Notes: generated from the sequence alone by a model not told the origin. A stretch of 61,740 nucleotides of DNA from Christensenellales bacterium (GCA_048394785.1 DBFJGL010000056.1:1-61740), one strand, 5' to 3'; counted from the stretch's first letter, positions 14,238 to 31,864 are shown. A program made the numbers and translations.

Positions 14238-14543
14238 AACGCGTTTCGTGTCCAAAAACCAATAAATTATTGCAAATTACAGGGTTTTAGGTGCAGGTAT
14301 GACTGAATTGATTGAGTATAAAACACGAATTGAATACTAAAATTAGGTATGCGTTTCGTGCATATCGCCTTTTAGACTGCTTTTGCGTCTTATAAAAGCA
14401 ATATTGTGTTCCGAGACAATGTGACGGGAAGATGCTGACAACCGATACGGATAATAAGACGGTAGTCTATAAACTTCATAGACTTTCATTTATGGCTTCG
14501 GAGATAAAAGAAGAAACTCCCAACATTTCGGGAGTTTCGGTTA

Positions 14544-14588
14544 TGGAGCTGATAACCGGACTTGAACCGGTGACCTCTTCCTTACCAA
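14544..14588 (-). pseudogene. orphan 3' half of a disrupted host tRNA-Thr(GGU): anticodon loop through CCA
   Basis: Minus strand reads TTGGTAA-GGAAG-AGGTC-ACCGG-TTCAAGT-CCGGT-TATCAGC-T-CCA. The 3' acceptor and anticodon-stem strands pair perfectly with the 5' half at 57382-57419. Confidence 0.85.
14580..14588. repeat. attL core (CCTTACCAA), direct repeat of 57380-57388
   Basis: This 9-bp string is the only sequence shared by the two junctions. It corresponds to the anticodon loop plus 2 nt of the severed tRNA. Confidence 0.7.
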
Positions 14589-14700
14589 TCTCGAACCCTA
14601 CTTTTTTCCTAAGATGTGCCCTATACGATTACAGACTGTCAAAACCACAATATATTGTGCTTTTGACGGTCTTTTTTGCTTATCAGACACAATGGAAAAA

Positions 14701-14748
14701 TATTTGCAGACTTTTTGGAAAGTCAATCGTCTGCAATTGTCTGCAATT
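14701..14748. repeat. candidate arm-type integrase/Xis binding sites at the left element end
   Basis: Tandem GTCTGCAATT-GTCTGCAATT at 14729-14748 is identical to 57020-57039. An inverted copy TATTTGCAGAC lies at 14701-14711. Confidence 0.55.
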
Positions 14749-15018
14749 ATAGCGATTTAGGCAGAAATAGAGCGTATTAGAGCGTTAAAATTCTGCGTTT
14801 CTTTCGTAATGTATAATTATTCATTTCTGTCACGTTGCCTACCCAAGGACAAATGCACGAATTTCTGCACGTTTATTAGAATATCGGTTAGAACAAGAGA
14901 GGTTAGAATGATTGATAACGATTTTTGATTATTCTGTCTTTAAGATTTCGGATACGTATTTCTTTGTTGCGGCGAGACAGTGATAAACCGTTAAAAGTTG
15001 ATTTTAAGAGTCGCAGTC

Positions 15019-15048
15019 TTGACATTTTCTGCTTTTTTATGCTATAAT
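15019..15048 (+). promoter_or_regulatory. near-consensus sigma-A promoter for the cargo operon
   Basis: TTGACA (15019-15024), an 18-nt spacer ending in TGC (extended -10), then TATAAT (15043-15048). It lies 36 nt upstream of the XRE gene. Confidence 0.65.
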
Positions 15049-15083
15049 ATGCTTGAAAATGAAATGAACACAGCGAGGACTTT

Positions 15084-15332
15084 ATGATGACATTTGCGCA
15101 AAAGGTTAAATTCGTAAGAGCAAAAAAACAATTAAGTCAGGACGAGTTGGCTTCGGCAATCGGAGTATCCTACTCCACCGTCAGCCGCTGGGAGCGAGAA
15201 GACAGAACGCCGCAAATGAAGTCAATCGGTAAATTGATTGCTTATTGCGAAAAAAACGGGATTGACATTATCGGCGATGAATCGGGTGCTTTTGCAAGCA
15301 GCGAAAAATACGGAAACGGCTTGGGAGATTAA
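15084..15332 (+). CDS. XRE-family helix-turn-helix transcriptional regulator
   Basis: 82 aa. LSQDELASAIGVSYSTVSRWERED is a classic Cro/C1-type HTH. Confidence 0.85.
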   Translation: MMTFAQKVKFVRAKKQLSQDELASAIGVSYSTVSRWEREDRTPQMKSIGKLIAYCEKNGIDIIGDESGAFASSEKYGNGLGD

Positions 15333-15335
15333 ACT

Positions 15336-17702
15336 ATGCGAAAATTACGTTTCTATGCAATCTTGTGCATTGCCGCGGCGATGTTTTTTGCAACGGCGTT
15401 CATTCCCGTCAATCAGAGTTTCGCCGCCGAGGCAACTCAACCGAGTATCGTAACGACATCGGAAGGACTGTCTCTGGCGTTGTCGAAAGCCAAATCAGGC
15501 GAAACAATCTACGTCGGGGATATCGACTTTGAAGTCAAAGGAACCAACACCAATCCCATCGAGCGCAAAACGGTGATCACGGGCGTGAGAATCGTAAATG
15601 GCAAGTCGGACGGAACGAAAGCTGTATTTACGGGCGGCAGTTTTAATCTGATCGGCGACAACCGTTCGGGCATTACCACGGAGTTCGTTTTTGAGGGAAT
15701 CCGTTTTGACGGCGGCATTGATACGTCGGTTCTTACCCATTCCGACTGGGAACTTCCGACAAACAGTCAAGGCGAAACTCTTTTGGATCAGCCGTCGAAA
15801 GCGCAATACGCAATACGCATGGAAAGAAACGTCAAGGCGACTTTCCGAAACTGTGATTTTGAAAATTATATGTTTAATGCGGGCGGAGCAATCCGTGCCG
15901 ATTATTCCGACGGCTCCAACAGTCTGGAACTAAACCTATACGACTGCAATTTTGCAAAAAACGCGGCCTTTACCTGCGGCGGTGCTGTCGCCCTTTGGGG
16001 TGCCTACGGCACGGGCAACAACGTTTCCTTTCTTGCCGACGGCTGTCGGTTTGAGGGTAACTTTTGCGGTGGTGCTACTAAAATAACGGAAGACGGCGCT
16101 TCGAATTATATCCAAACGTCCTATGGCGGGGCGATATACTCCAAACACGTATCCGTTGAACTGCGCAATACCGTTTTAATCGGCAACACGGCCAATCACG
16201 AATATGCGAACGCGCCTGCCCTGTCGGGCAACTACGGCAAAACCGACGTAAGTTCGGGCGGCGGCATATACTGTTACTTTGCGCCGCTGACGATGAAAAA
16301 CTGCGTTGTGACGGAAAATAAGGCGTCTACCGGCGGCGGCATAAAGCTCAAACTGTCCTCGGCGGTTATCGACGGTTGCGTCGTTGCGAACAATCGCGCA
16401 CAAACTTTGGCGGAAAAGCCGAATTCCAAAAACGGTCTTAGCAGCGCTATGGGATTGGGCGGAGGAATTTATATCAATTACGACAACAGCGTGTATGCTA
16501 TAAAACTTATGAATACCAGCATATACGGCAATTATGCGCAGAACGCTTTGGGCGCAATAGGCGTACCTACTAACCCGAAAGAAAGGCTCGATTTGCGCTT
16601 CTTGTTTTGCACAGTGGAAAACAACACTTGCGAAACGGCACGGGAGGAGTATGAACACACCGATAATAACAACTGGTTATGGTACTGTCAGCCCGGTGAC
16701 TTCTGGGAACTTGACTGTGTAAAAAAGGTGGGTTGTGCGATTGCCGATGCGGAATACCCGAGGGAGCCGGTCGTACAAACTCCGTCCGAAGACAACGGTT
16801 ACAACAGCTTTTACGTTGCCGCCGTTTTTGATTCGACGGAGCCTAAGCACCTGTCTCCTACCGATTTTTCCGTGCCGACGGAATACGTGTCTACCGTTTG
16901 CGGCGGCGAATTTTCCCGTATCGAGGGTGCGTTTTACGTCGGCGACAATTACCGCGAATCCTTGCCTGTCGAACTGGACGGGAACGGAGTTGCCGTTGAA
17001 TACGACTTGACTTACGGCACAGCCGAATTGCCTGTTCCCGTGCGCAACGGATATATTTTCGAAGGCTGGGTAACGGAAAAGGGAGAAACCGTCGATCCCG
17101 ACCAAACGCTTTTTGCCTACGGCGAAACCCTTACGTTGTACGCAAAATGGACGGCGAGGCAGTTTCCCGTTCTCTTTATCGTGGGCGGAGCTGAGGAAAC
17201 GCGCACGCAAACCTACGACACGGCGTGGAATGTGCCGGATGCGCAAAAGAACGGTTACAAATTTTTAGGCTGGTACAATGCGGAAAGCGGCGGCGAGAAA
17301 GTCGATACGGCGTCCGCGTTTGCCTATGACGAAACGCTGACGCTTTACGCGCGATTCGAGAAGAAATCTCCGTTACTCGCGGTTGTGCTGTCGGTGAGCG
17401 GCGCGATAATCTTGATAGCAGGTAGCACTGTTGCCGTTGCATTGATTATGCGTCGCAAAAAAGCGGCGGTCGCAGCAGGAGTAACGCAAGCGCCTGCACC
17501 ACCTGACAAACCGACGCCGGATACAAGCGCGCTGTCCCCCAGAGAGCGGGAAGTATTGGATTTGCTGCTGTCCGGCAAGCGTCGGAGCGAGATAAGCGAA
17601 ATCCTCTATGTGGGAGAGGAAACGGTAAAATCCCACATTAAAAATATTTACGCGAAACTGGAAGTAAAAAGTATTCACGAGCTTTTTTCAAAGTTTAATT
17701 AA
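15336..17702 (+). CDS. single-pass membrane protein: signal peptide, extracellular PMP-like beta-helix, two Listeria-Bacteroides repeats, TM helix, cytoplasmic LuxR/GerE HTH
   Basis: - Signal peptide ends ...NQSFAAEA.
- Repeated GGAI/GGGIY motifs indicate a beta-helix.
- GYIFEGW...LTLYAKW and GYKFLGW...LTLYARF are Flg_new-type repeats.
- TM helix LLAVVLSVSGAIILIAGSTVAVALIM is followed by RRKK.
- C-terminus LSPREREVLDLLLSGKRRSEISEILYVGEETVKSHIKNIYAKLEV is a LuxR-type HTH. Confidence 0.8.
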   Translation: MRKLRFYAILCIAAAMFFATAFIPVNQSFAAEATQPSIVTTSEGLSLALSKAKSGETIYVGDIDFEVKGTNTNPIERKTVITGVRIVNGKSDGTKAVFTGGSFNLIGDNRSGITTEFVFEGIRFDGGIDTSVLTHSDWELPTNSQGETLLDQPSKAQYAIRMERNVKATFRNCDFENYMFNAGGAIRADYSDGSNSLELNLYDCNFAKNAAFTCGGAVALWGAYGTGNNVSFLADGCRFEGNFCGGATKITEDGASNYIQTSYGGAIYSKHVSVELRNTVLIGNTANHEYANAPALSGNYGKTDVSSGGGIYCYFAPLTMKNCVVTENKASTGGGIKLKLSSAVIDGCVVANNRAQTLAEKPNSKNGLSSAMGLGGGIYINYDNSVYAIKLMNTSIYGNYAQNALGAIGVPTNPKERLDLRFLFCTVENNTCETAREEYEHTDNNNWLWYCQPGDFWELDCVKKVGCAIADAEYPREPVVQTPSEDNGYNSFYVAAVFDSTEPKHLSPTDFSVPTEYVSTVCGGEFSRIEGAFYVGDNYRESLPVELDGNGVAVEYDLTYGTAELPVPVRNGYIFEGWVTEKGETVDPDQTLFAYGETLTLYAKWTARQFPVLFIVGGAEETRTQTYDTAWNVPDAQKNGYKFLGWYNAESGGEKVDTASAFAYDETLTLYARFEKKSPLLAVVLSVSGAIILIAGSTVAVALIMRRKKAAVAAGVTQAPAPPDKPTPDTSALSPREREVLDLLLSGKRRSEISEILYVGEETVKSHIKNIYAKLEVKSIHELFSKFN

Positions 17703-17728
17703 ACGATTTTCTTACATACAACAGTCTC

Positions 17729-17756
17729 AGCCCGACCGGCACGGTCGGGCTTTTAT
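17729..17756 (+). terminator. rho-independent terminator
   Basis: Stem AGCCCGACC (17729-17737) / GGTCGGGCT (17743-17751), followed by TTTT. Confidence 0.7.
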
Positions 17757-17919
17757 TATGCCTTGCGCCTAAAATAAAGATGTCTTGTTCAAAATCCCCC
17801 GAAATATCCCCCTGATGGGGGATGTACAAAAGCAAACCGTACCATTAAAATATAAATAACAAATGCAAGTATTCAGTCCAAAGTACAGTTGCAAAATAGA
17901 AACCAACCGGAGGTAAAAA

Positions 17920-19800
17920 ATGAAAGGAAAAATCAGACTGGTCGGCATATTGCTGCTTACCGTAATTCTCGCGGTAACACTTGCCGCCTGCAACGGCGGC
18001 AATGACGACAATGGCAACACTCCCAAAGCCCCTACGCAAAGCGATTGGTCGGCGGTGGGAATCGACGGCGGCTTTTCCGCCGAGGTTAAAGGCAATCTCG
18101 TCACTAATTTGGCGGTTGAAGGCGAAATTCAGATGAAGTGGACGGATTCGGACGAAACCAGCCTCGACAACACCATTGCTTGGTTGAAATCCAAGGGTTT
18201 TTCGTCCTACGGCGGCGCAACCGCGACAAAGGAGTCGTTGCAGGACGGCGCATTGCTATCATACACGGCGGAAAAATCGGTTTCCGCAGTCGCGCAATCG
18301 GCAAAAGCCGTTGCTTTCGCCGCCGCGGCAAGCGCGGGAAATACCGTCGTGGCGGAAACGCTTTACGTCGCGCGCGACGTTTCGCTTATGGGTATGAGCT
18401 ACAAGGCGGGCGAGCTGTATCTGTCAGTAGCTCCCGAAAATAGCGGAAGCACGCCTGCGCCCGGTCCGAGTACGGAATGGCCGGCGCAGACCATCGCTTC
18501 GATCATAGGCGACGGCGTACCCGTTTATACCGGCGCGGCGTCTTCTGTTACAACACAGTCTAACACGCTTGTTAAGCCCACCGTTACGGTCACGGTAGCG
18601 GGTGCAACCAACGCCGATTACGTCGCATACAGGACGGCGTTAACACAGTCGGGATTCAGCGACACGCCCGACGGGTTTGTCAAAACGAAAACCAACGGCG
18701 ACGTTATCACGGTAATTGTAACGGATATGACGACAAACGGCGGTATGATTTTGATAACCGTGACGCTGGAAAAGAACAGCGGAGCGCTTACAGAATATCC
18801 GTCCAACAGACTTACGGCGTTTAACGGCGCCAATCTCCCCGCGTATTCGGGTGGCACGAGTTTTGACTGCGAAGATATTCTGGCGACGTATTCCGCGGCA
18901 ATGAAAACGGGAATAGAGCAAGAAATTGCGAAATTGGAAGCCTTGGGCGCGAACCTTACCGCCGAACAGCGAACTCAGCTTGCGGAATATAAGGAAAAAC
19001 TTAAACTTATCGACAATATGCGTGCGTTTACGGTCACCGTCTACGGCACGACGGACGGCGAACGCAGCGCGTTTTGCGAAAGACTGACCGCAAACGAGTT
19101 TACCCTTAACGGCGGAACGTACGTCAAGGACTTTTCCAATCCGAATCAATATCACGCGCAGGTTGACGTAGGCGACGTAGAAAACGGAAAACTTTTACTT
19201 ACTCTTATCCGTATGCCGGCGGGGCTTTTGGACGACGAAGGCGGCGATCCCGTAAATCCGCCCGTAACGGACGAGTTGACCTTTGCGGATTTGCCGACGA
19301 ATATAAAAATAACTTTTGAGTATTTGGTCAACGGAACAAAGTTTACAGAAAGCACGGCTACTAAAATCGGTGATAATTGGCTGATAGAAAGCGCTTCGTA
19401 CGGTACTACAGTAAAAAGTTATCTTAAAAAGTCGGGCAACGTGTGGACGGAATACGCCGAGGCAAGCGGCGCGTGGACGGCGGGCAGCTCCTATACGGCG
19501 CTTTCCGACCACGACGTTTTGGACGTGCTGACGTTTATTTTTAATAACGACGTAACCGGCTTTACCAAAGGACAGCAAATAACCATTGCGGGGCAAGCTT
19601 GCGACGTCTATACGAAAACGAACGACAGCTTAGCCTCATACGGAATAACGACCGTCGATACCTTGTACGTAAACGCGGACGGCTTTGTTTTGTACAACGA
19701 CCATTCGAGCAATCAACAAGGACAAACCACAACACAAACCTATCAAATCACCTTGTGGGACACGACCGTTACGTCTTTCGGTGATATAACGCTGCCGTAA
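17920..19800 (+). CDS. lipoprotein of unknown function (626 aa)
   Basis: Signal peptide with lipobox LAAC-NGG. The C-terminal ~170 aa end in WDTTVTSFGDITLP and are paralogous to modules in the 20697-21890 product. Confidence 0.75.
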   Translation: MKGKIRLVGILLLTVILAVTLAACNGGNDDNGNTPKAPTQSDWSAVGIDGGFSAEVKGNLVTNLAVEGEIQMKWTDSDETSLDNTIAWLKSKGFSSYGGATATKESLQDGALLSYTAEKSVSAVAQSAKAVAFAAAASAGNTVVAETLYVARDVSLMGMSYKAGELYLSVAPENSGSTPAPGPSTEWPAQTIASIIGDGVPVYTGAASSVTTQSNTLVKPTVTVTVAGATNADYVAYRTALTQSGFSDTPDGFVKTKTNGDVITVIVTDMTTNGGMILITVTLEKNSGALTEYPSNRLTAFNGANLPAYSGGTSFDCEDILATYSAAMKTGIEQEIAKLEALGANLTAEQRTQLAEYKEKLKLIDNMRAFTVTVYGTTDGERSAFCERLTANEFTLNGGTYVKDFSNPNQYHAQVDVGDVENGKLLLTLIRMPAGLLDDEGGDPVNPPVTDELTFADLPTNIKITFEYLVNGTKFTESTATKIGDNWLIESASYGTTVKSYLKKSGNVWTEYAEASGAWTAGSSYTALSDHDVLDVLTFIFNNDVTGFTKGQQITIAGQACDVYTKTNDSLASYGITTVDTLYVNADGFVLYNDHSSNQQGQTTTQTYQITLWDTTVTSFGDITLP

Positions 19801-19814
19801 TCGAGGAGAAAATT

Positions 19815-20678
19815 ATGGGAATATTCAATAAAATCACCAAGGGTATCACGCGCGGAGTAGGAAACGCGGTGTCAAACGCAGTACAGCGAAAAACTACGGA
19901 AGCCCTGACGCCGCAGGTCGACAAACTGGCGGATAAAATCGTCAAGACAAATCCGCAATCCTCGACGAACGAAGGGCAAGCCGCGCAAAGCTCCGACCTT
20001 GCTGCGGCAACGGCGAGGCTCGCGGGCGCATACTCGGGCGCCGTGCAAAACTACGCAACCGAGGCGGCAAAGAATATCAAGGTCTGCCCCTCCTGCGGCA
20101 AGCCGACGAGCGCGGATAAAAAATTTTGTCCCGAGTGCGGCGCGGAAATGCCCCAAACCACGCTCGCGGACTGTGCGGTATGTCCCGCTTGCGGCAAGCA
20201 AAACGGCATAGGCGAAAAATTCTGCTCGGACTGCGGTACGAAGCTGCCCGCAGCAATCGAAGAAGATCGCCAAAGCGCGCAAGCCGACGAGAATACTATG
20301 GCGCGGTGGGACGAGTTTTTGTCCGCATATCCCAAATGGAATTGCGGCGGCAGCGGCTACAATCTCGAACGCTTCGACGGCGACCGCTATATGTTCGCCG
20401 CACGGTTTGCCGATTTCGACGCAGCAAAGCGGGCGGTAGAGCAATACCGCGCAAGTCTGCGGCAAAGCGGCTTTGCGCCCGCGGGGCAGTACCCGAGCGA
20501 GGAGCATCTTTACAAAAAGACGGACGGCGGTTGTTTTCACGTAGATACCGAGCATTGCTTCGAGGGCGATTCCGATTGCCCTACCGTCTATTTCAATACG
20601 GAAGAACCATACGGCGGCTTCGATTACAAAAAAGAAGAACCGAAAAAGAAAAAAGGCTTTTTCGATTTATTCGGTTAA
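19815..20678 (+). CDS. cytoplasmic double zinc-ribbon protein (287 aa)
   Basis: CPSCGK..x..FCPECGA and CPACGK..x..FCSDCGT form two consecutive zinc ribbons. No TM helix. The C-terminal domain is of unknown function. Confidence 0.7.
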   Translation: MGIFNKITKGITRGVGNAVSNAVQRKTTEALTPQVDKLADKIVKTNPQSSTNEGQAAQSSDLAAATARLAGAYSGAVQNYATEAAKNIKVCPSCGKPTSADKKFCPECGAEMPQTTLADCAVCPACGKQNGIGEKFCSDCGTKLPAAIEEDRQSAQADENTMARWDEFLSAYPKWNCGGSGYNLERFDGDRYMFAARFADFDAAKRAVEQYRASLRQSGFAPAGQYPSEEHLYKKTDGGCFHVDTEHCFEGDSDCPTVYFNTEEPYGGFDYKKEEPKKKKGFFDLFG

Positions 20679-20696
20679 TATAAAGGAGAAATTTCT

Positions 20697-21890
20697 ATGA
20701 AAAAGACGTTTATTATCATTTTAGCAGTGCTGACTATGTTTTCGATATGCTTACTTTCCGCTTGTGATTCGTCGGGCAACGAAAACGGAAACGGCGGCAG
20801 CGGCGGAGGCGGCGGGGGCGGCGGAGAAACGACTACCGGGTACACTCTCCCTACCAACGTAAAGGTCGTTTATGTCGATAACGATACAATCGGCTTCGAC
20901 GAAACTGTTACGGCTTACAAAATCGGGGATACATACGCGGCGTCCACGGTTACCGCCAACGGTACTGAGAGCGTATATTTCAAAAAGCAGGGAGATACTT
21001 GGAAATATTATAAAAACTCCGGTTGGGGCTGGGAGATCGAAGAAGAATCCTGCAACCGCAAGTCCGCCGAAATACTTACCTTCGGCTATATAGTTATAGA
21101 CTCATTGAAGTCATCGGCGGAAAAAGCGGGCGCCGAACAGATTGCGGGTATATCTACCGAAAAATATTCCTCTCAATACTCCACTTACGAGGAGCATTGG
21201 TGGGTAGCCGACGGGCTTATTATTAAGTATCACTACCAATCCAACGCCGTAACGCCCCATATTCAATTACGGGAAATCAGGTCATGGGATACCTCGGTAA
21301 CGGCAATGGGCAATGATGCGGACGTTCCCGGACTTCTTGCGGGAGAAGAAGGCACCCCGCCTACAAAGGACGCGGTATTGCCTCAGAACGTAAAAGCCGA
21401 ATGTACCACCGTTTCGGGCTCTACCACAACGAATAAACTTACCGTAAAAATCGGCAACGATTATTATTACAAAACAACAAGAACGTATGTAGACAGCACA
21501 ACGCAGGAAACGAATACCAGCGTAGACGAACGTTTTTACCGTTACAATTCCGCAGAGGAAAATTGGACGTCTTATTGGAAGAGATCGGACGGGAGCTGGG
21601 CGAGTTCGGAAGATCCTATCGAATATAAAGAGGACATTGAAAGCAATGCGTTCAATTCGTATCTAACCGACGGTTACGAAGGCGAGTTTGTAGAAACCGT
21701 TACGATTGCCGACGTGAGCGTACGGCATTTCAAAAAGGAGTCCCAAATGGACTTCGGAAGGGGCGATTATTGGGTAACCGACGGCGGATTGGTGCTAAAA
21801 TACGAATCGGGTTCGGGAACGTACGTATACACGTATTCGGTTTGGGACACTTCGGTCACAAGTTTTGCCGGTATCAACCTGCCGGAATAA
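20697..21890 (+). CDS. lipoprotein with two tandem copies of the WDTSVT-terminated module (397 aa)
   Basis: Lipobox LSAC-DSS, then a Gly-rich linker. The two modules end in SWDTSVTAMG and VWDTSVTSFAGINLPE. Confidence 0.75.
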   Translation: MKKTFIIILAVLTMFSICLLSACDSSGNENGNGGSGGGGGGGGETTTGYTLPTNVKVVYVDNDTIGFDETVTAYKIGDTYAASTVTANGTESVYFKKQGDTWKYYKNSGWGWEIEEESCNRKSAEILTFGYIVIDSLKSSAEKAGAEQIAGISTEKYSSQYSTYEEHWWVADGLIIKYHYQSNAVTPHIQLREIRSWDTSVTAMGNDADVPGLLAGEEGTPPTKDAVLPQNVKAECTTVSGSTTTNKLTVKIGNDYYYKTTRTYVDSTTQETNTSVDERFYRYNSAEENWTSYWKRSDGSWASSEDPIEYKEDIESNAFNSYLTDGYEGEFVETVTIADVSVRHFKKESQMDFGRGDYWVTDGGLVLKYESGSGTYVYTYSVWDTSVTSFAGINLPE

Positions 21891-21901
21891 GGAGATAACA
21901 A

Positions 21902-22606
21902 ATGAAAAACAAAATTTTATCAAATTTATCGTACGTGTTCTGCGCAGGACTGGGGTTATTGAATTTTATTCTGCTGGCAATCCCCTACGTCGCGTCCTTT
22001 TATAAATACGACTACGGCGAATGGGGCGGCAAAGGCTCGAACTCGGCGGGCATTTCCGGCTACAAGGTTATGAGCCTTTGGGAGGGCGGCTTCGGCGGCA
22101 TTATGAGCGCAATCTTCCAGATTTTTATTCTGATTTTAGGAATTGCACTGCTTGCCTACGGCGTTATGGGACTCTTAAAGGCATTCGGCGTGTTTGAAAA
22201 GTTCCCCGACAAACTCGGGAAATTCGAAACGAAGAAGCTCGGAGAATACGGACTGTTCGCTTATGCGGGACTGAACGTACTGCTTTTGATATTCCTGATT
22301 ATTTTGTGCGCAACCAATACGCGTAGCGAAAGCGAAATGGGTATTTCCGGTTCCGCCGGAATACGGTTTAGCGCAGGAATTTTTATTACTCTGATTTTTG
22401 CCGTAGGCTCCGTCGTCGCAATGAAATTTCTGCAAAAGAAGTTTCCCGCAAACGCGGATAACGGGCCGCAAATTTCTTATCTATGCGAAAATTGCGGCAA
22501 AAAGGCAAAAAAGACGGTCAAATTCTGTCCCGAATGCGGAGGAAAGGTCGTCGAAAAACAAACGGACTTACAGGAGGATACTACTCCGCCCGATAGTGAA
22601 AATTAA
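21902..22606 (+). CDS. four-TM membrane protein with C-terminal zinc ribbon (234 aa)
   Basis: Four hydrophobic helices, followed by CENCGKK..x..FCPECGG. Confidence 0.7.
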   Translation: MKNKILSNLSYVFCAGLGLLNFILLAIPYVASFYKYDYGEWGGKGSNSAGISGYKVMSLWEGGFGGIMSAIFQIFILILGIALLAYGVMGLLKAFGVFEKFPDKLGKFETKKLGEYGLFAYAGLNVLLLIFLIILCATNTRSESEMGISGSAGIRFSAGIFITLIFAVGSVVAMKFLQKKFPANADNGPQISYLCENCGKKAKKTVKFCPECGGKVVEKQTDLQEDTTPPDSEN

Positions 22607-22623
22607 AACGGAGGGAAATGAAA

Positions 22624-24042
22624 ATGAAATCGGTTTTTTCAAAAACAAAGGCGACGGCAATCGTATTGGCTCTGCTACTTGCTTTTTCCGTCTGCGCGTT
22701 TGCCGCGTGCAACCCAAGCGGTAACGAAGGCAGCGGAAACGGTAACGGAAATGGTAACGGGGGCGGAAACGGCGGCACGACTACGGACAAAACCGTCGTA
22801 CAGTTGATCGACGAGGCGCAGGTAATTTTCAACAAGGCGGGCAAAGCCCTTTCGAACGCGACGACGGGACTTGCGGGTAATTTGACCGAAAGCCAGCCAC
22901 AAGTGCAAACGCTGAGCGCAAAGTCAGCGCCGCGCATCGCTTTGCTGTCCGACGAAAAACCGAGCGACGGCGACGATATTCCTTCGGCACCCACCTTAGA
23001 CGACCTTGAAGGCTACGTACTGCTACGCAACCTGCAAGTAGCCATTAAATCGGTTTTCGGCGAAGTAGAGTACTACACGGCGGAAGATTTCGGCGGAAAC
23101 GAAAACGCACCGGGCATAGGCAAAGTCAAAAGCGAAGGGACGTACACACGGCTGGCACGCACCTTCAAAGAATTAGACGCTTTGCTGTCTGAAATGGGAG
23201 ATGGCGCAAAAGTGACGATTGAAAACAAGGACGTTCCCACGGCGCCGAGTTACGCCTTTAAGCGGGACGGAAATTACGTGGTTTCCGCTCCGGTACTACG
23301 TTGGCAAATCAACAACGAAGTTGACTCCGAAGGCAAACCGATTCTTTCCGAAGAAGAACAAATAGAGGTGGTCGCGCGCGGAGAAACGACGTATATAGCG
23401 CAGGGCAATACCCTCAACGTCACGGGTCCGAAGTACGTTCAAGAGGGCGACAAACAGTTGCCCGACAAACTTAAAGACGCGGGCGACGGCATCGACCCGC
23501 TCTATCGGGCAGACAACCTCAGCACTTTCCGCTCCTTTACGGTAAACGACAACGTCGCTTCGTCCCCTGCGCTGGAAGTCGTTTCTGCCGACGACGACGT
23601 GTACATGCGCTTTTACGGCATTGATATGACGTCTCTCCAAATGGGCTCTGAGGTTGATACCAACGAATTTTATCTCGACTTAAGCGTAAGATGGTTTGAA
23701 TACACGGAAAGAATGACTTTCGAAAGCCCCCAAGGACTGGAAAACAACTGGAATTTCCCCAACGAAGTTTACGGCGTGGCAAAATTCGCCCCCGACGGCA
23801 CCAGCGGTATGGTAAAACTTTTCCGCAATTACAGTCACGACGCGGGCGGGCCGAAGGACGCGGCGGGCAATCCGCAGTACGAACGCGGTACCTATCCTTT
23901 GCCCGAAAAATGGCTTACCTCGTTCAACGCCGAAACGGCTCTCGATATTTCCGGCTTGGAGGGCAACTGGCTGCAACACAAGCAGCGGTATCTGTGCACC
24001 TTCAACTTCACGGGGCTGCCTGCCGCGGAAGAAAAGAAATAA
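22624..24042 (+). CDS. lipoprotein of unknown function (472 aa)
   Basis: Lipobox FAAC-NPSG followed by a GNGNGNG linker. ATG 22624 is 8 nt from GGAGGG. The track start at 22618 is only 2 nt from the RBS. Confidence 0.7.
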   Translation: MKSVFSKTKATAIVLALLLAFSVCAFAACNPSGNEGSGNGNGNGNGGGNGGTTTDKTVVQLIDEAQVIFNKAGKALSNATTGLAGNLTESQPQVQTLSAKSAPRIALLSDEKPSDGDDIPSAPTLDDLEGYVLLRNLQVAIKSVFGEVEYYTAEDFGGNENAPGIGKVKSEGTYTRLARTFKELDALLSEMGDGAKVTIENKDVPTAPSYAFKRDGNYVVSAPVLRWQINNEVDSEGKPILSEEEQIEVVARGETTYIAQGNTLNVTGPKYVQEGDKQLPDKLKDAGDGIDPLYRADNLSTFRSFTVNDNVASSPALEVVSADDDVYMRFYGIDMTSLQMGSEVDTNEFYLDLSVRWFEYTERMTFESPQGLENNWNFPNEVYGVAKFAPDGTSGMVKLFRNYSHDAGGPKDAAGNPQYERGTYPLPEKWLTSFNAETALDISGLEGNWLQHKQRYLCTFNFTGLPAAEEKK

Positions 24043-24056
24043 GGCAAAAGCCGTAA

Positions 24057-24083
24057 GCGCCGCGTCTTTTTCGCGGCGTTTTC
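24057..24083 (+). terminator. rho-independent terminator
   Basis: Stem CGCCGCG (24058-24064) / CGCGGCG (24072-24078), followed by TTTT. Confidence 0.6.
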
Positions 24084-24212
24084 GGCATTTGGGGAGGACA
24101 AATTCTATGACGAAAAAATTACATAAAACGCTATTGCTTTTAAGACGAAATATAGCGTATTCCTTAGGCGGAGCAATCCCCAAGACAAATCACATAAGTG
24201 AGGTAAAGTAAG

Positions 24213-24869
24213 ATGAGTAAAACCAAAAAAAGTACGTTGTTTGTATTACTGCTCGCACTAATGCTTGCGGCGATTGCAGCGGTAAGCGTATCGGCGCTGC
24301 CCGCACAAACGGCGCACGCGGCAATCAATCAGTACGGAGTCATCGAGGCGGGCACGACGACCTTGAACGGTAACTTAAATCAGGGAAAGACGCTTGCTTG
24401 TAGTGTAACCGCGACGCTTAACGGAAACGGCTATACGATTTCACGCAATCTTGCAACAGATTATCCCGTAATTACCGTACGTAGCGGCGCCGTTTTGACC
24501 ATCAACAACGCAACCATCGACGGAGGATATACCTTTACGCAGAGCGGCGACTATTATATAAATACTTCCACCGCCTACCTTTCAAGCGCTCCTCTTATTT
24601 TGGTCAAGGACGGCGGAAGGCTTATTTTGAACAACTGCACCGTGCAAAACAACGTATCGTCGGAAAACGGCGGAGGGATTTATATCGAAAAGGACGGTGC
24701 GGTGGATATGTTCGATTCCACCGTGCAAAAGTGTCGGGTAACCGGCTCTTCTTCCGGCGGGGGTATTTACAATTTGGGTATCCTCGCCATGGTGGGCGGA
24801 AACGTTCGATACAACCAAGCCGGCGGCGCCGGCATTGTATATAAACAAAAAAGAAGGCTATACCGATAA
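24213..24869 (+). CDS. N-terminal fragment (signal peptide plus first beta-helix turns) of the giant surface protein
   Basis: The signal peptide ends ...AQTAHAAI. Beta-helix motifs NGGGIYIE and SGGGIYN are present. The frame ends 35 nt after the next ORF opens in the +1 frame. Confidence 0.6.
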   Translation: MSKTKKSTLFVLLLALMLAAIAAVSVSALPAQTAHAAINQYGVIEAGTTTLNGNLNQGKTLACSVTATLNGNGYTISRNLATDYPVITVRSGAVLTINNATIDGGYTFTQSGDYYINTSTAYLSSAPLILVKDGGRLILNNCTVQNNVSSENGGGIYIEKDGAVDMFDSTVQKCRVTGSSSGGGIYNLGILAMVGGNVRYNQAGGAGIVYKQKRRLYR

Positions 24870-27800
24870 AACCGTCAACGTAACGCGCAATCTCGCCGAT
24901 AGCGGTGCGGGACTGGCAATAATAGACGGCGACGCATGGATTTACGGCACTCAGTCGGCGCCTGTCAAAGTAGAGTCCAACGTGGCGTGTCAAGGGTACA
25001 ATTACATTGCTAATCCGGACGGCACCGGAGGCGGAGTATACGTCGGATTATACGCAAAAGCGCACATATATAACTTTGTTAGCATTCAATACAATTCCGC
25101 CGGCAACGGAGGCGGTATTTACACGGTCGGCAGTACTTGGCTCGGACGGGAAGGCACGACGTCCACCCGCATGGTGGTTGCCTACAACAGCGCGACAAAT
25201 TACGGCGGAGGCATTTGGTCGGGTGGCGGCGCCGGTACTTGGCTGGGAAAAATTACTGTTTTTGAAAATACCGCGCAATACGGCGGCGGAGCGTATATCC
25301 ACAGCGAAACGACTGCGGAAAAACCCTTTGCCGTTACGTCCACGTCGCTCGTAAGCTCTAACACAGCGAGCACGGCGGGCGGTGGAATTTACGCCGACGG
25401 CGTACTGACCTTGGAATACAAGCCGTATATCGGCCTTAACAAGGTAGGCTCGGCAAACAGCAACGTCTATTTGTCGGTAACAGACGGTAAAAACAGCAAA
25501 ATAAATATTGTCCAAAAACAGACGGACAACAAAGATTCGGGTACGCAGACGGTGCCTATCGGATTGAGTTCCGATATGACTTCCGCAACGAAAATCGTCA
25601 CGACAAACTATACGGTTACGAATTCGCTTGCTCTGTCGGACGTGTTTACAACCGACAATACCGATTATTACGGGCTGTCGCTTTCGGGCGGCGAAGTGCA
25701 AATGAACCGCTACGTCAAGGTCACATATTCGCCTTACAGTTGCACGGGAAGCGCAAAAACCGTCAAGGTCGGCTACAATCAGGCCACCCTCGTTTACAGC
25801 GCCGCACAAGCCGGTTTTTCCAAGACGGGTTACAGCCTTTCGGGGTGGAGCCTTGTAGCCGGCAATTCGGTTGCAACCTACGGCTTGACGCACCAGCCCG
25901 CATTTAAGGACGATATCACCCTGTATCCCGTTTGGTCGGTAAACAGATACACGCTTACCTATGACGGCAACGGCAACACCGGCGGAGGTATGAGTACAAG
26001 CGAGTTTACTTACGGTCAGACGGCCAATCTTCGCTTGAACGGCTTTACGAAGACGGGCTACAATTTTTTAGGCTGGTCGTTCGACCAAAATGCGACGACT
26101 CCGACCTATTTAGACGGAGCCTCTTTTACCTATAATTACACCTCGGACAAAACGCTGTACGCCGTATGGAAACCATTATATTCTTACACCGTAAAGCACT
26201 ATTTGCAAAACATAGCGGACGATGAGTATACCATTGACGTTACGGAAACCCTTTCCGGCACGGGTACTACGCAGGCGGTAGCGAAAGACTACGCCGGTTT
26301 TACCGCGCAAGCGTTCAGTCAAGCGACCATTGCCGCAGACGGCAGTACGGTGGTGGAAATTTTCTACAATCGCAACAGTTACACCCTTACCTTCAACGCC
26401 AAGGGCGGCAATATTTCGAGCGATACGCTTACCGCGAAATACGGTTCGCCGATTACCCTTCCCGTTGCAACGAGAAACGCCTATACCTTTGTCGGTTGGA
26501 GCGAAACGGACGGCGGCAGCACGGCGGTAAATTACACGACTATGCCGGCGGTAAACAAAACCCTTTATGCTGTTTGGAAAAACAGGGCGCTTGTAAGCAT
26601 TTCCGTTCCCGCCGAGTATCTAACCCAAACCTATTTCGTAAACGACGCTTTGAAAGCGTTTCAAATTAACTTAGTTTACGACAACGGCGATACGGAAAGC
26701 GTTGACGTAACTTCCGCTATGGTTTCGGGCTTTTCCACGGCAGCCGTGGCGTCAAACCAAACGGCGACAATATCTTACGGCGGCAAAACCGCAACCTTTA
26801 CTTATACCGTAACGCAGGGCTACGCCTACAAGGTTCTTCATCATTTTGAAGATATTGACGGCGAAGGGTACGGAACGGATACCGCTACCGTAAGCGAAAC
26901 TCTTTACGGCACGGGAACTACGCAGGCGGTGGCAAAAAAATACGACGGCTATACCGCACCCACTACCATAGAGCAGAAGGAGATTAACGCGGACGGAACT
27001 ACGCAAGTCGATATTTATTACACCCGAAATTCTTACACCGTCACCTTCGACGCGGGCGGCGGTGAATTTCCCGCAAACGCAACGACGACGCTTTCCGCAA
27101 AATACGGCGCAAACGTTTCGGTAGCGGGCATTACCGCGCCCGCAAAACTCGGCTTTGTGTTTACCGGTTGGAACACTTCGGCGGAAGGCACCGGCACGCC
27201 GGTTGACAAAAGCGGAAATTATACCGTGACTGCGGAAACAAACCAAACCCTTTACGCCGTTTATGAAGCCAAAGCGGTGACGAGACTGACCGGCAAGTCA
27301 GACAGCAAAAATGAGTGGTACGTGGGCGAGGCAATGGGCGAATATTACTTTACTGCGGAATACAACGACGGAACGACGGAAGATATATCCGTCGTTGCGA
27401 CAGGCGTAGAAGTTAAAAATTTCGACACTTCCACCGCTACCGGTACGGGAGAAAAAAGAACGGCGACCATTAAATACGGCGGTCAGCAGTACAGCTTCAA
27501 CTACACCGTAGTTGTCAGAACGTACAGCGTGACCTACTACGCAAACGGCGCGTCGGGTGAACTGCCCATAAATACGCCGATGCCAAGCGGTATGAGTTTA
27601 ACTGTCCAAGACGGCGATTCCCTTACCAAAACGGGCTATACCTTCACAGGCTGGCTGTACAGCGGCGACGGCAACGTGTACGAGTCGAACGATACGATAA
27701 CGATGCCCGCCCAAGACGTCACCTTTACCGCACAGTGGAGTTTGAAGTCGCCCGACCTTGATTTTGGCAATATTCTCGGAGGCGCCTCTCCGGATTTCAC

Positions 27801-30800
27801 CTATGACTTCTCATACGACGGCGAGGCTCATCAGGTAACGGTAACCGCCACACACGAATTGGTAGGGCAAGTTGATTATACCTACGCTTGGTACCGTTTG
27901 AAGGCGGGCGGGACTCCGATTCCCTCTATGTATCGTACGGAAGATATGCTAAATAGCAACTGCGATCAGGTAGGCGAAACGGATACCTATGGCTTTACCG
28001 AGATTGCCCACAGCGGAACCCATTACTGTCTGGTCAAGGCGACGTACGGCAGCGATACGAGTATCGCCGTGGTACAGATTTACGTGACCGTTTCCAAAGG
28101 CGAGCAAGCGGAGTTAACCTTCTCGCAAACCGAAATAACCTACGCCGGCGAGAATATCTATTTAAGCCTATACGTTTCGGGCGGTTCGGGCGACGGAGCG
28201 ATTACCTTCCCTTATTGCACCTTTGGCAATGACGTTTCCGGCAGTTTGAATTCTGCAACCGGTGTAATCAGCAATATAACAAAGGTAGGCGGAACTATAA
28301 AAGTTACGGTACGAAAAGCCGCAAGTAGCGACGGAAACTACAAGGCGACGGAAAAAGAGTTTACGCTCACCATAAATAAGGGCGTTCAAAATATTGTAAT
28401 AGGCGATATTCAAAGCCCCACGTTCGGCAATGCTTACGACCTGACGGCTACGGGCAACGTCGGCACGGTAGCCTTTGAAACTATCACGGGAGGCACGGCT
28501 ACGGGCAAAATAGAAAACGGAAAACTTTCCGTCAGCGACCGTGGAACGGACGGTACTATTACCGTAAAAGCCACCGCCGCCGAAACCGACCTATGGGCGC
28601 AAGGCACGGCGCAAAAAACCTTTACCTTTGCCAAGGCTTCCTACGACTCCGCACCCGAATTTTCGGGCAACATTCCGGCGCAAACCTATACCCTATGCGT
28701 AGGGCGCGCGCTTTCGGAAATAACGCTTCCTACTTATTGGTCGTGGCAGGACGGGCAAAGTTTGCCCAACCAAACCGGAACTTACGACCGGATGGCTATT
28801 TTCACCCCCGCAAGCCCCGACAACTACGAGGGAACCGAAGCGACTATTTCAATAACCGTCGCCGCCCATAACTCCGAAGGCGCGGCAACGAGCAATAACG
28901 ACGGCACGCACTCTCACACTTGCTCGGTTTGTTTTGAGATAATCACCGAAAACTGCACCTTTGGCGACTGGGTGACTACCGTTCAGCCGGGCGTAAATCA
29001 AGAAGGCAGTAAATACCGCGATTGTTCCGTGTGCGGTTACCGCGACACGCAAGTCATACCCGCAACGCATACCTGCGTGTACGATGCCGAGTTCACGGTA
29101 GATATTGCGCCTACCTGCACGACGGCGGGTGAAAAATCCCGACATTGCACGACGGCAGGTTGCGATGAGCGCGTCGGTATTACCGTAATCCCCGCCCTCG
29201 GTCACTCTTGGGGCGATTGGATTGTAACCACCCCCGCCACTTGCACAACGGACGGCGTAGAAACGAGGACTTGCGCCCACGATAGTAGTCATACCGAAAC
29301 GAGGGCTATTACTGCAATCGGTCACTCTTGGGGCGATTGGACGGTCAAAAAGGCTCCAACCGCACAAACGACGGGCGAACTTGAAAGAATTTGCGCCAAC
29401 GATTCCTCGCATACCGATAGTTTTGTATTGCCCGCGCTGAACAATAGCGACTACGTTTACAGCGTTGTGACCGCACCCGGCTGCGAAACTACGGGAACAG
29501 GCAAATACTCTTACACGAAAGATAATAAAACCTTCGATTTTACCGTTACTCTTGCTGTTGCGGGGCACACCTTAACGCCTCATGTGGCAAAAGCGGCGAC
29601 CTGCACCGAAGACGGAAATACCGAATATTGGACTTGCTCCGTTTGCGGAAAATATTTCAGCAATAGTGCGGGCACGAACGAAACGACGTTGAACGCCGTC
29701 AAAATTTCGGCAATAGGTCACTCTTGGGGAGAATGGATTGTGACCACCCCCGCTACTTGTACGGAAAACGGCGTAGAAACGAGAACTTGCACCCACGACA
29801 GTAATCATACGGAAACGAGGACTATTACTGCCAAAGGTCACGAGTGGGGCGGTTGGACTTCTAACAACAACGGCACGCACACCCACGCTTGCATGTACGA
29901 CGGCAGTCACACCGAAACGGAAAACTGCACATATGAGGATAGCGTAGTTGCCCCAACCTGTACGACAAAGGGCTATACGCGCCACACCTGCACCGTTTGC
30001 GGTTATCATTACGACGACACGCCTACGGACGAAATTGCTCATACCTTAACGGCACACGCCGCCGTTTCGCCCACGCATATTACGGCGGGCAATATCGCTT
30101 ATTGGACTTGTTCTGTTTGTAAAAAGTATTTTTCGGACGTAAACGGCGAAACGGAAATCAGCCTGAACGACACCGTACTGCAGGCTACCGGACACAGCCA
30201 TTCTTCCGAATGGAAAAGCGACGAGAGCGGACATTGGCACGAGTGCAGTTGCGGAGATAAGGCAGACGTGTCGGCGCATACCCCCGGGGCGGCGGCAACC
30301 GAAACCACGCCACAAACCTGTACGACGTGCGGATACGTAATTACGCCCGCTACCGGACACGCAACGCATACGCCCGATACTTCCAAGTGGCATTCCGACG
30401 GCACGAACCATTGGCACAAGTGCACCGGCTGTGAGGAAAAACTTGATGTTGCCCAACATAGCGGAGGCACGGCGGACTGCGAGCACAAGGCGGTTTGCGA
30501 AATTTGCGGCGCCGAATACGGCGAGCTTGCCGCGCACAGCTACGGCGAATGGACTCATTACAACGACACGCAGCACAAGCGGGTTTGCTCGGTTAATGCA
30601 GACCACGTCGAATACGTCGACCACGCTTGGAACGACGGAGTAATTACCACCGCGCCTACCCATACCGCGGCGGGCGTAAAAACCTATACCTGCGCGGATT
30701 GCGGACACACCAAAGCGGAAAGCATCCCCGCTACTGCCGAGCACTTTTACAATTTGGAAATTGCGGAGGCAAGGTTTTTGAAATCCGCCGCCACTTGTAC

Positions 30801-31542
30801 GCAAAAAGCGGTTTATTACAAGAGCTGCGCCTGCGGCGAACGCGGAACGGCAACCTTCGAGTACGGCGGTTATGCTGCGCACACATTGACCGCGCACGAG
30901 GCCGTAGCAGCCACCTGCACCCAAAACGGCAATATCGCTTATTGGAGTTGCTCGGTGTGTAATAAGTATTTCAGCGATAGCACGGGCGAAACCGAAATAA
31001 CGCAGGCGCAAACGGTAACAGCGGCGGGGCATAATTATGTGTTTACAAGGACGGTTGCGCCTAATCTCGAAGCGCAGACGGACGGTTACGACCTGTGGAC
31101 GTGCACCCGCGATGAAAGCCATACCGAACGGCGCAATATCGTGGAATGGGAAACATTGATTGCCGATAAGGTGACCGTCATGGTGTCGGGCGGCACGATA
31201 CAAGGCCAAAGCGGCTCGTCCATAATCGTCAATAAAAACGGAAACGTCACGGTTGTGGCAGACGAAATCGAAGGCAAAACCTTTGTCGGTTGGCGAAACG
31301 CAAACGGAGATATTGTCAGCGAAAACGCTACCTACACTTTCAGAGCAAGCGCGGATATGACGCTTACCGCCGTGTACGAGGACGTCACGTCCAAACCTAA
31401 GGGACTTTCAGGCGGCGCAATCGCGGGCATAGCGGTCGGAGGCGTGGCTATTGCAGGATTTGGTGGATTTGCAATATTCTGGTTTGCGGTCAAGAAAAAA
31501 TCTTTTGCCGATTTACTTGCAGCGGTCAAACGCAAAAAATAA
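24835..31542 (+). CDS. giant surface protein body (2235 aa): PMP-like beta-helix, Listeria-Bacteroides repeats, Ig-like domains, Cys/His-rich modules, C-terminal TM anchor
   Basis: No signal peptide of its own; the track start is a TTG. Domain evidence:
- GGGVY/GGGIY/GGGIW/GGGAY beta-helix repeats
- at least 6 repeats of the GY.F.GW...LYAVW type
- about 740 aa of CxxC/His modules
- TM helix IAGIAVGGVAIAGFGGFAIFWFAV followed by KKKSF. Confidence 0.75.
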   Translation: MYINKKEGYTDKTVNVTRNLADSGAGLAIIDGDAWIYGTQSAPVKVESNVACQGYNYIANPDGTGGGVYVGLYAKAHIYNFVSIQYNSAGNGGGIYTVGSTWLGREGTTSTRMVVAYNSATNYGGGIWSGGGAGTWLGKITVFENTAQYGGGAYIHSETTAEKPFAVTSTSLVSSNTASTAGGGIYADGVLTLEYKPYIGLNKVGSANSNVYLSVTDGKNSKINIVQKQTDNKDSGTQTVPIGLSSDMTSATKIVTTNYTVTNSLALSDVFTTDNTDYYGLSLSGGEVQMNRYVKVTYSPYSCTGSAKTVKVGYNQATLVYSAAQAGFSKTGYSLSGWSLVAGNSVATYGLTHQPAFKDDITLYPVWSVNRYTLTYDGNGNTGGGMSTSEFTYGQTANLRLNGFTKTGYNFLGWSFDQNATTPTYLDGASFTYNYTSDKTLYAVWKPLYSYTVKHYLQNIADDEYTIDVTETLSGTGTTQAVAKDYAGFTAQAFSQATIAADGSTVVEIFYNRNSYTLTFNAKGGNISSDTLTAKYGSPITLPVATRNAYTFVGWSETDGGSTAVNYTTMPAVNKTLYAVWKNRALVSISVPAEYLTQTYFVNDALKAFQINLVYDNGDTESVDVTSAMVSGFSTAAVASNQTATISYGGKTATFTYTVTQGYAYKVLHHFEDIDGEGYGTDTATVSETLYGTGTTQAVAKKYDGYTAPTTIEQKEINADGTTQVDIYYTRNSYTVTFDAGGGEFPANATTTLSAKYGANVSVAGITAPAKLGFVFTGWNTSAEGTGTPVDKSGNYTVTAETNQTLYAVYEAKAVTRLTGKSDSKNEWYVGEAMGEYYFTAEYNDGTTEDISVVATGVEVKNFDTSTATGTGEKRTATIKYGGQQYSFNYTVVVRTYSVTYYANGASGELPINTPMPSGMSLTVQDGDSLTKTGYTFTGWLYSGDGNVYESNDTITMPAQDVTFTAQWSLKSPDLDFGNILGGASPDFTYDFSYDGEAHQVTVTATHELVGQVDYTYAWYRLKAGGTPIPSMYRTEDMLNSNCDQVGETDTYGFTEIAHSGTHYCLVKATYGSDTSIAVVQIYVTVSKGEQAELTFSQTEITYAGENIYLSLYVSGGSGDGAITFPYCTFGNDVSGSLNSATGVISNITKVGGTIKVTVRKAASSDGNYKATEKEFTLTINKGVQNIVIGDIQSPTFGNAYDLTATGNVGTVAFETITGGTATGKIENGKLSVSDRGTDGTITVKATAAETDLWAQGTAQKTFTFAKASYDSAPEFSGNIPAQTYTLCVGRALSEITLPTYWSWQDGQSLPNQTGTYDRMAIFTPASPDNYEGTEATISITVAAHNSEGAATSNNDGTHSHTCSVCFEIITENCTFGDWVTTVQPGVNQEGSKYRDCSVCGYRDTQVIPATHTCVYDAEFTVDIAPTCTTAGEKSRHCTTAGCDERVGITVIPALGHSWGDWIVTTPATCTTDGVETRTCAHDSSHTETRAITAIGHSWGDWTVKKAPTAQTTGELERICANDSSHTDSFVLPALNNSDYVYSVVTAPGCETTGTGKYSYTKDNKTFDFTVTLAVAGHTLTPHVAKAATCTEDGNTEYWTCSVCGKYFSNSAGTNETTLNAVKISAIGHSWGEWIVTTPATCTENGVETRTCTHDSNHTETRTITAKGHEWGGWTSNNNGTHTHACMYDGSHTETENCTYEDSVVAPTCTTKGYTRHTCTVCGYHYDDTPTDEIAHTLTAHAAVSPTHITAGNIAYWTCSVCKKYFSDVNGETEISLNDTVLQATGHSHSSEWKSDESGHWHECSCGDKADVSAHTPGAAATETTPQTCTTCGYVITPATGHATHTPDTSKWHSDGTNHWHKCTGCEEKLDVAQHSGGTADCEHKAVCEICGAEYGELAAHSYGEWTHYNDTQHKRVCSVNADHVEYVDHAWNDGVITTAPTHTAAGVKTYTCADCGHTKAESIPATAEHFYNLEIAEARFLKSAATCTQKAVYYKSCACGERGTATFEYGGYAAHTLTAHEAVAATCTQNGNIAYWSCSVCNKYFSDSTGETEITQAQTVTAAGHNYVFTRTVAPNLEAQTDGYDLWTCTRDESHTERRNIVEWETLIADKVTVMVSGGTIQGQSGSSIIVNKNGNVTVVADEIEGKTFVGWRNANGDIVSENATYTFRASADMTLTAVYEDVTSKPKGLSGGAIAGIAVGGVAIAGFGGFAIFWFAVKKKSFADLLAAVKRKK

Positions 31543-31848: not shown

Positions 31849-31864
31849 AACACCTAAGTATGCG

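Follow-up and report, generated by a model that had tools for sequence, protein, structure and literature searches.

An integrative conjugative element of gut Clostridia that appears to split a host tRNA-Thr(GGU) gene in its anticodon loop and to bring a replacement

The window, by which we mean the whole analysed stretch of 61,740 nucleotides from a Christensenellales bacterium, contains an insert of 42,800 bp (14589..57388, + strand, one core copy counted), in which every long gene lies on the + strand. The insert is flanked by ordinary chromosome, with SpoIVA, an MFS transporter and a YjbR-family gene on the left side and SDH_alpha-family and ATC_hydrolase genes on the right; the presence of SpoIVA in the flank suggests that the host is a sporulating Firmicute. 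Further out, the host flank at 59660-61160 is repeat-rich and non-coding, and in it a unit of ~186-198 bp occurs four to eight times, the copies being 88-94% alike. The unit holds a 53-nt GC-rich segment, one inverted copy of which lies at 61108-61160, and spurious ORFs (MSQFNSLLKFSRIPRALCC...) arise from these repeats, which probably represent a host intergenic repeat or MITE-like family.

The conjugation module of the insert (34248..46729, +) encodes a MobL relaxase (34248-35465, +; MobL, 1.2e-27), a type IV coupling protein (T4CP; 35452-37704, +; T4SS-DNA_transf, 4.2e-43), a T4SS pilin-like protein (42145-42450, +) and a VirB4-like ATPase (44150-46729, +; TraG P-loop/AAA_10). A tyrosine integrase of 483 aa (55534..56985, +) matched PF00589 (1.4e-26) and PF14659 in a search on 55474-56985. 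The start of its gene is overlapped by an 88-aa ORF (55278..55544, +), which is made a candidate excisionase/RDF (Xis) by its position; this ORF had no match in a Pfam search and is kept upstream of the integrase gene in relatives. The first gene inside the left end encodes an 82-aa Xre/cI-type HTH protein (15084..15332, +), and further cargo includes an ArdC-like protein, N6/N4 and C5 DNA methylases, a primase-polymerase and HTH/sigma-like regulators. A relaxase, a coupling protein, a VirB4-family ATPase and an integrase thus lie within one insert bounded by two cores, the combination by which an integrative conjugative element (ICE) is recognised, and the insert is such an element. A prophage reading was dropped, as no phage structural or lysis families were matched, whereas the relaxase, T4CP, VirB4-like ATPase and pilin are present. 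The element also encodes very large surface-type proteins of 2235 and 1459 aa (24835-31542 and 37607-41986) with Listeria-Bacteroides repeats, and a 788-aa protein (15336-17702) in which such repeats are oddly paired with a C-terminal LuxR/GerE HTH domain.

The two copies of the 9-bp core, at 14580..14588 and 57380..57388, are spaced by 42,800 bp; both read CCTTACCAA on the + strand, which in the tRNA direction is TTGGTAAGG, and each lies within one half of a severed host tRNA-Thr(GGU) gene. The 5' half, which forms the attL junction (57380..57419, minus strand; tRNA positions 1-40), reads GCTGATA TA GCTC AGCAGGTA GAGC A CTTCC TTGGTAA on the minus strand from 57419 to 57382, and past 57382 continues with GG and then with DNA unlike tRNA (TGTGCCAGCC...); an identical sequence begins the intact gene found in 14 genomes. 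The 3' half, which forms the attR junction (14544..14588, minus strand; positions 32-76, encoded CCA included), reads TTGGTAA GGAAG AGGTC ACCGG TTCAAGT CCGGT TATCAGC T CCA from 14588 to 14544, and is preceded in the tRNA direction by DNA unlike tRNA (...GTAGGGTTCGAGA). The overlap of both halves is the core itself, composed of the 7-nt anticodon loop and 2 nt; the anticodon loop is reportedly one of the recognised sublocations of crossover. The host terminator of the original gene is still found beyond the 3' half (14513..14538, minus strand). An almost certainly spurious ORF of 106 aa (14432-14752, +) crosses the attR junction and the orphan half, and could be annotated by a gene caller.

Joining of the halves gave a 76-mer that ARAGORN calls tRNA-Thr(GGT), with fully paired acceptor and anticodon stems, and exactly these 76 nt occur without interruption as a gene in 14 species-representative genomes, all from uncultured Clostridia labelled Ruminococcaceae, Acutalibacteraceae or Eubacteriales. 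In the whole window, ARAGORN and Rfam (73.5 bits) call a single tRNA, a tRNA-Thr(GGT) at 57243-57318 (minus strand), so neither junction is a tRNA gene. The sequence-only reading of this DNA had assigned the orphan 3' half to the severed 5' half and not to this intact gene, and had expected the rebuilt sequence to score as a tRNA. Both proposals are borne out, by the ARAGORN call and the 14 intact genes as well as by the perfect stems, against mismatches at 5:68 and 28:42 in both chimeras of an orphan half with the other half of the intact gene. Its statement that the intact gene differs at exactly the stem positions, in a compensatory way, needs correction: the changes at pairs 5/68 and 28/42 are compensatory, but seven positions differ in all (5, 9, 16, 28, 42, 59, 68). 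That reading made no mention of an ICE, of the intact tRNA as its replacement gene or of the phage precedent (PMC10865867).

These mismatches bear on a conventional explanation of the locus, in which the ICE would extend from 14589 to 57280, the intact tRNA would be the regenerated target, and the 5' half with its spacer would be an unrelated leftover. Most tRNA-targeting islands work in this manner, as outlined in the Islander description (PMC4383910). At this locus, however, the 5' part of the intact gene combined with the orphan 3' half yields C:U and G:A mismatches in two stems, whereas the supposed leftover fits the orphan perfectly, and the resulting 76-mer is a real gene in 14 species. 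We therefore regard this explanation as highly improbable, and further evidence on both of its sides is provided by other copies and relatives of the element, as described below.

The complete tRNA-Thr(GGU) (57243..57318, minus strand), termed X type after its stems (GCTGCTA/TAGCAGC and CGTCC/GGACG), is the presumed replacement of the split host gene; it sits 61 nt inside attL and is oriented like the severed gene. The 61-nt spacer between the core and this tRNA (57319..57379, minus strand), which is identical in the contig L060, contains a hairpin at 57344-57360 that is terminator-like on the + strand only, against transcription leaving the element, and the tRNA is followed by an intrinsic terminator (57213..57240, minus strand). 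No recognisable promoter was found in the spacer or for the element tRNA itself. A host sigma-70-type promoter (57513..57541, minus strand) with TTGACA, 17 nt and TATAAT, a 12/12 match, lies ~90 nt upstream of the severed 5' half and is the sole consensus promoter reading toward the element tRNA. In the predicted read-through RNA, composed of the 5' half, the spacer and the tRNA, the element tRNA folds as a clean cloverleaf, and the 5' half and spacer fold separately from it. Because only the host promoter reads toward the tRNA and the cloverleaf forms in the read-through RNA, we propose that the replacement is under the control of the host promoter.

When the two flank proteins were looked up exactly, all contigs found either contained the element or broke close to it. 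Among the copies of this host locus that could be retrieved, none lacks the element, and no same-species attB was recovered. The 14 genomes with the identical intact tRNA have neither DNA flanks nor flank proteins in common with the window, so they confirm that the reconstructed gene exists without serving as empty sites. With a strict pattern (12 nt of flank, the 76 nt and 12 nt of flank), no match was obtained in the metagenome collection, and the nearest SDH_alpha relative (P0123, 76% identical) has no tRNA at that locus. Similarly, the circular attP junction was not found in the collections searched, and patterns for attP and for the core plus spacer gave 0 matches in viral contigs. Since neither a same-species attB nor an attP junction was retrieved, we infer the excision competence of the element and the pre-insertion state of the locus from the integrated copies.

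As no empty site was found, other copies of the element were sought, with the 82-aa HTH protein as a handle; an identical sequence of this protein is present on 15 contigs. Those contigs that reach the left junction carry a near-identical arm up to ...GTAGGGTTCGAGA followed by TTGGTAAGG, after which three different tRNA-Thr 3' halves appear. Host A (the window and L062) has GGAAG...TATCAGC and the YjbR flank, host B (L061, L063, L066) has GGATG...ACCAGTTCAAGTCTGGT-CATCAGC and an LRR_5 flank, and host C (L064, L065) has GGACG...TAGCAGC, an APH flank and a different terminator. Homology between the copies ends at the tRNA 3' end, and the downstream DNA is unrelated. The same junction nucleotide is therefore used in three hosts, in agreement with the earlier placement of the insertion point in the anticodon loop and with a core of 9 bp.

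Contigs of 44.2-44.5 kb from other samples (L066/L074, L068) begin at or near the left att region. Among them only ERR13267233_79 (44.5 kb) was read at both ends, and both ends lie inside tRNA-Thr sequence: one (L066) is the orphan half of host B, the other (L074) the 3' portion of an X-type tRNA. The L074 end is 99.9% identical to the right end of the window and stops inside the X-type tRNA; a search for the host-B right junction via the 88-aa and a 260-aa protein yielded only contigs that end inside the element tRNA. The X-type tRNA is identical in the host-A copy, the host-C copy (L060, L072) and L073, and for host B, where the contig ends inside the gene (L074), the identity covers the 3' portion that was read. 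Thus the halves vary by host while the arm, the spacer and the full tRNA are constant, a pattern characteristic of site-specific integration at this nucleotide by an element that carries the intact tRNA as cargo. This constancy also weighs against the idea of a regenerated target beside a relic, in that the same spacer and X-type tRNA accompany the ICE in hosts A and C and the X-type 3' portion accompanies it in host B. The ~96-99% identity of the copies in three hosts may be taken as indirect evidence of transfer.

The replicated use of one nucleotide also speaks to the suggestion that a transposase created the 9-bp direct repeat by duplicating its target site, so that the repeat would be no recombination core. 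Nine bp is a common duplication length, and a single locus would read alike either way; yet the insertions in three hosts, and those of relatives, all fall on one nucleotide of this tRNA. Searches detected neither a transposase nor terminal inverted repeats, the element end is occupied by a tyrosine integrase and a candidate Xis, and the arm beside the core resembles the tRNA 5' anticodon-arm region, as expected of core-type binding sites. We attach almost no probability to this suggestion.

In addition, four contigs (L067, L068, L070 and L069) encode the 82-aa HTH protein unchanged and match over the first ~250 bp, but their distal arm is a different one. The replaced arm abuts fragments of other tRNAs, which in L067 and L070 is a T-arm (GGTCAGGGGTTCGAATCCC) and in L069 the 3' end of a tRNA in reverse orientation; L068 has the same replaced arm, and the contig stops short of any sequence resembling a tRNA. 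The ICE backbone thus seems to swap integration modules and targets.

The host-C copy L060, whose integrase is 100% identical to that of the window, adds a further variation. Here X-type severed 5' halves, which match the X-type 3' half of L065 from the same sample, precede the same spacer, and positions 11740-12002 (= L072; ENA ERZ13448236 NODE_686) contain at least two perfect tandem units of 101 bp before the full tRNA. Each unit consists of a tRNA-Thr 5' half ending TTGGTAAGG and the 61-nt spacer, and the contig ends inside a further spacer. Since the assembly stops within the repeat, the exact number of units is not certain. An assembly loop was considered and rejected as the source of these units, as a single unit would give a shared repeat of only 40 nt, and the presence of at least two is probably real; the unit number accordingly varies between copies of the element.

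Such variation would be accommodated by a composite origin in two steps, in which the 5' half, core and spacer, together with the 5' part of the X-type tRNA, are the scar of an earlier cycle of integration and alternative excision, and the present ICE, with a classical attP (arm, core and X-type 3' half), entered the tRNA of that scar. Three co-oriented cores per locus would permit alternative excision products, and the remnants L044 and L045 described below resemble the classical form. On the other hand, the unrelated hosts A and C would each have needed an identical spacer scar before the ICE arrived, the single unit of the window directly carries the host-specific 5' half, and the maker of the scar must belong to the same element family, which would leave splitting and replacement in its life cycle. 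This origin is in our judgement improbable, and direct splitting of the host gene with replacement by an element-borne tRNA is the reading that we carry forward.

Both ends of the element carry repeated motifs consistent with attachment arms. The integrase-proximal arm (P' side; 56986..57212, minus strand) contains two pairs of TTGCAGAC repeats, at 57020-57037 and 57133-57151, is conserved in relatives, and has a degenerate motif resembling a tRNA 5' arm, TAGGTAGGGCACATCC, adjoining the integrase stop. The distal arm (P side; 14589..14760, minus strand) contains TTGCAGAC repeats at 14704-14711 (+) and 14729-14746 (minus strand) as well as TGCAAATATTTTTC, and two degenerate motifs of the tRNA-5'-arm type abut its core, at 14625-14608 (TATAGGGCACATCTTAGG) and 14601-14589 (GTAGGGTTCGAGA). 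The pattern TTGCARAC has 16 matches in the window against 5.2 expected, and 7/16 fall at the element ends (14704-14746 and 57020-57151); paired TTGCAGAC repeats recur in relatives. Judged from their sequence and arrangement, the TTGCAGAC repeats are candidate arm-type integrase sites, and the degenerate copies of the D-stem and anticodon stem beside the core are plausibly core-type sites or decayed junction scars.

Homologues of the integrase with 65-89% identity are common in gut metagenomes, where they lie beside tRNA-Thr sites, and their modules follow the order primase-polymerase, C5 methylase, 259-aa ORF, 88/89-aa ORF and integrase. A layout like that of the window is found in L028 (integrase 67% identical) and L018-21 (77%), with a host promoter or tRNA-Val followed by a 5' half ending TTGGTAAGG, a spacer of 51-61 nt, a full tRNA-Thr and a terminator. 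The L028 spacer is homologous to that of the window, and this similarity ends at the 5' end of the severed half, beyond which the chromosomal context is another one; that a homologous spacer accompanies a relative is a further argument against an unrelated leftover. Another set of relatives (L036, L039, L040, L042 and L024/25/27) presents the integrase gene, then a homologue of the distal arm, TTGGTAA and a tRNA-Thr 3' half. Near-identical arms are joined at TTGGTAA to different 3' halves in L039, L040 and L042, and L024 and L026, which have the same integrase, are 100% identical to exactly TTGGTAA and unrelated after it. From the junctions of L024/L026, L039/L040/L042, L028 and L018-21, the heptamer of the anticodon loop is therefore the recombination breakpoint of the family. 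L024 was also considered as a simple inversion of L026 and rejected, since its 3' half is only 87% identical to the L026 tRNA and the downstream DNA differs.

Remnants of the lineage of the window element were observed in L044 and L045 (5001-5852), which retain only integrase residues 309-483 (the C-terminal 175), 87-89% identical, plus the arm. Their tRNA-Thr is identical to the element tRNA of the window; a DNA identity of 92% ends at the tRNA, and upstream lies an ordinary promoter region without a severed 5' half. Classical-looking junctions therefore also occur in this lineage, and the presence of this tRNA and its downstream arm behind an ordinary host upstream region is what the regenerated-target explanation would lead one to expect. 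We nevertheless retain splitting and replacement as the reading of the window for the reasons given above.

Several relatives carry an inverted copy of the far-left arm of the window between the integrase or cargo genes and the element tRNA (L018, 8940-9140; L026 and L024, 9375-9560; L037, 1900-2095). The inverted arm ends with TTGGTAA followed by AGT(C/T)..., and together with the junction core it brackets a tRNA cassette of ~480 bp between inverted cores; in L024 the same arm has recombined with a tRNA 3' half. This arrangement may represent an alternative att site or an invertible cassette, and it is left unexplained by the model set out next.

We propose, with a probability of roughly 0.82, that an ICE of sporulating gut Clostridia integrated into the anticodon loop of a host tRNA-Thr(GGU) gene, splitting it and bringing its own replacement. 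The exact fit of the halves, the ICE genes, the use of one junction nucleotide in three hosts, the constant element tRNA and the promoter layout are direct observations around which the following steps are arranged. Integration was likely catalysed by the tyrosine integrase of the element, with strand exchange inside the loop; if this enzyme behaves like other integrases that act on anticodon loops, the overlap region would be the 7 nt of the loop. The predicted attP has the order arm, TTGGTAAGG, spacer, full tRNA, terminator, arm and integrase gene. As this attP would be common to attB over 9 bp only, neither junction would be a tRNA, and dead 5' and 3' halves would be left 42.8 kb apart. Integration would at the same time place the element tRNA behind the host tRNA promoter, giving a read-through transcript of 5' half, spacer and tRNA from which the mature element tRNA would be released by normal tRNA end-processing, and this tRNA would then functionally replace the split host gene. 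Precise excision would rebuild the host gene. More speculatively, excision via the loop of the element tRNA itself would leave a unit of 5' half plus spacer and a classical attP, which could account for the L044/L045 remnants and the tandem 101-bp units of L060.

A broader picture, which we consider possible but doubtful, is that of a family of gut-Clostridia ICEs with a mobile tRNA-replacement cassette that hijacks promoters, switches between forms, leaves units as scars and is invertible in some lineages. The cassette may comprise the core, spacer, full tRNA-Thr, terminator and arm sites. The three co-oriented cores of each integrated copy (the junction, the anticodon loop of the element tRNA and the far junction) could allow a switch between the split-and-replace and classical forms, and units of 5' half plus spacer could be left or accumulated as scars, as in L060. 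In some lineages the cassette may lie between inverted cores, which would suit an invertible segment (L018, L026 and L037 versus L024), and the arms look as though they were built from decayed 5'-half units.

If the main proposal is true, the principle "break the tRNA and bring your own", described so far for temperate phages that infect Actinobacteria, extends to gut Firmicutes and their conjugative elements, in a more economical version with the replacement gene in cis behind the promoter of the host, and the carrier decodes ACC/ACU with an element-encoded tRNA. This tRNA may make the fitness of the host dependent on the element and lessen the requirement for extended identity between attP and attB, and the latter effect could help one element to enter hosts with differing tRNA-Thr genes, as in the three hosts described here. 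Island finders that expect a regenerated tRNA and a single displaced 3' fragment would set the boundary wrong by ~100 bp and would label the tRNA of the element a host gene. In addition, cassettes of integrase gene, attP and tRNA could serve as integration vectors for Clostridia that are hard to engineer.

Three groups of known systems can be compared with the element. With ICEs of the Firmicutes MobL type it shares the relaxase, coupling protein, VirB4-like ATPase, pilin-like protein and integrase, as well as anti-restriction and methylase genes and large surface proteins; in our library search, which covers part of the literature, no Firmicutes-type ICE was described as splitting a tRNA and supplying a replacement. 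With classical islands that target tRNA or tmRNA genes (Reiter 1989; Williams 2002; Islander) it shares a tyrosine integrase at one end, a tRNA target, a crossover in the anticodon loop and a displaced 3' fragment at the far end (14544-14588, minus strand). In classical islands, as the Islander description presents them, island sequence restores the split gene and an intact hybrid tRNA results at one junction (PMC4383910). In contrast, the integrase-proximal junction described here has 57419-57380 followed by the spacer TGTGCCAGCC... in place of a regenerated hybrid tRNA; both halves are dead fragments, and combining a host half with an element half gives mismatches in the stems.

The closest parallel is tRNA-dependent lysogeny, described for the actinobacteriophages Fionnbharth, LeBron, Gaia and others (Guerrero-Bustamante & Hatfull, mBio 2024, PMC10865867). 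In that system a tyrosine integrase acts at a core of 8-17 bp in a tRNA gene, no tRNA is reconstructed, and a phage-encoded cognate tRNA is required for viable lysogens, while the closely related phages Boilgate and Ximenita use the classical mode (PMC10865867). The Lactobacillus johnsonii prophage Lj965 was an earlier hint of a possible case outside Actinobacteria (cited in PMC10865867; also PMC3714127). By title and abstract, none of the papers in our non-exhaustive library that use the term "tRNA-dependent lysogeny" concerns ICEs. Four defining features of that system are present in this element: a tyrosine-family integrase, with catalysis predicted from its sequence; an attB overlapping a host tRNA gene; a short core (9 bp, against a criterion of ~10 bp) with no functional tRNA at attL or attR; and a complete tRNA-Thr(GGT) that travels with the element. 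Relatives with classical junctions also coexist in both systems, namely Boilgate and Ximenita there and the L044/L045 type here. The differences are that this is an ICE of Clostridia and not a temperate actinobacteriophage, that its core is the anticodon loop itself, and that the tRNA is demonstrably needed for viability there and may be needed here. Furthermore, the Fionnbharth tRNA lies elsewhere in the genome with its own demonstrated promoter (PMC10865867), whereas the replacement described here lies 61 nt from the crossover in the orientation of the severed gene, has no detected promoter of its own and appears to borrow that of the host. The principle was thus already published for phages (PMC10865867); what is new is its occurrence in an ICE, in gut Clostridia, and with the replacement in cis behind a host promoter.
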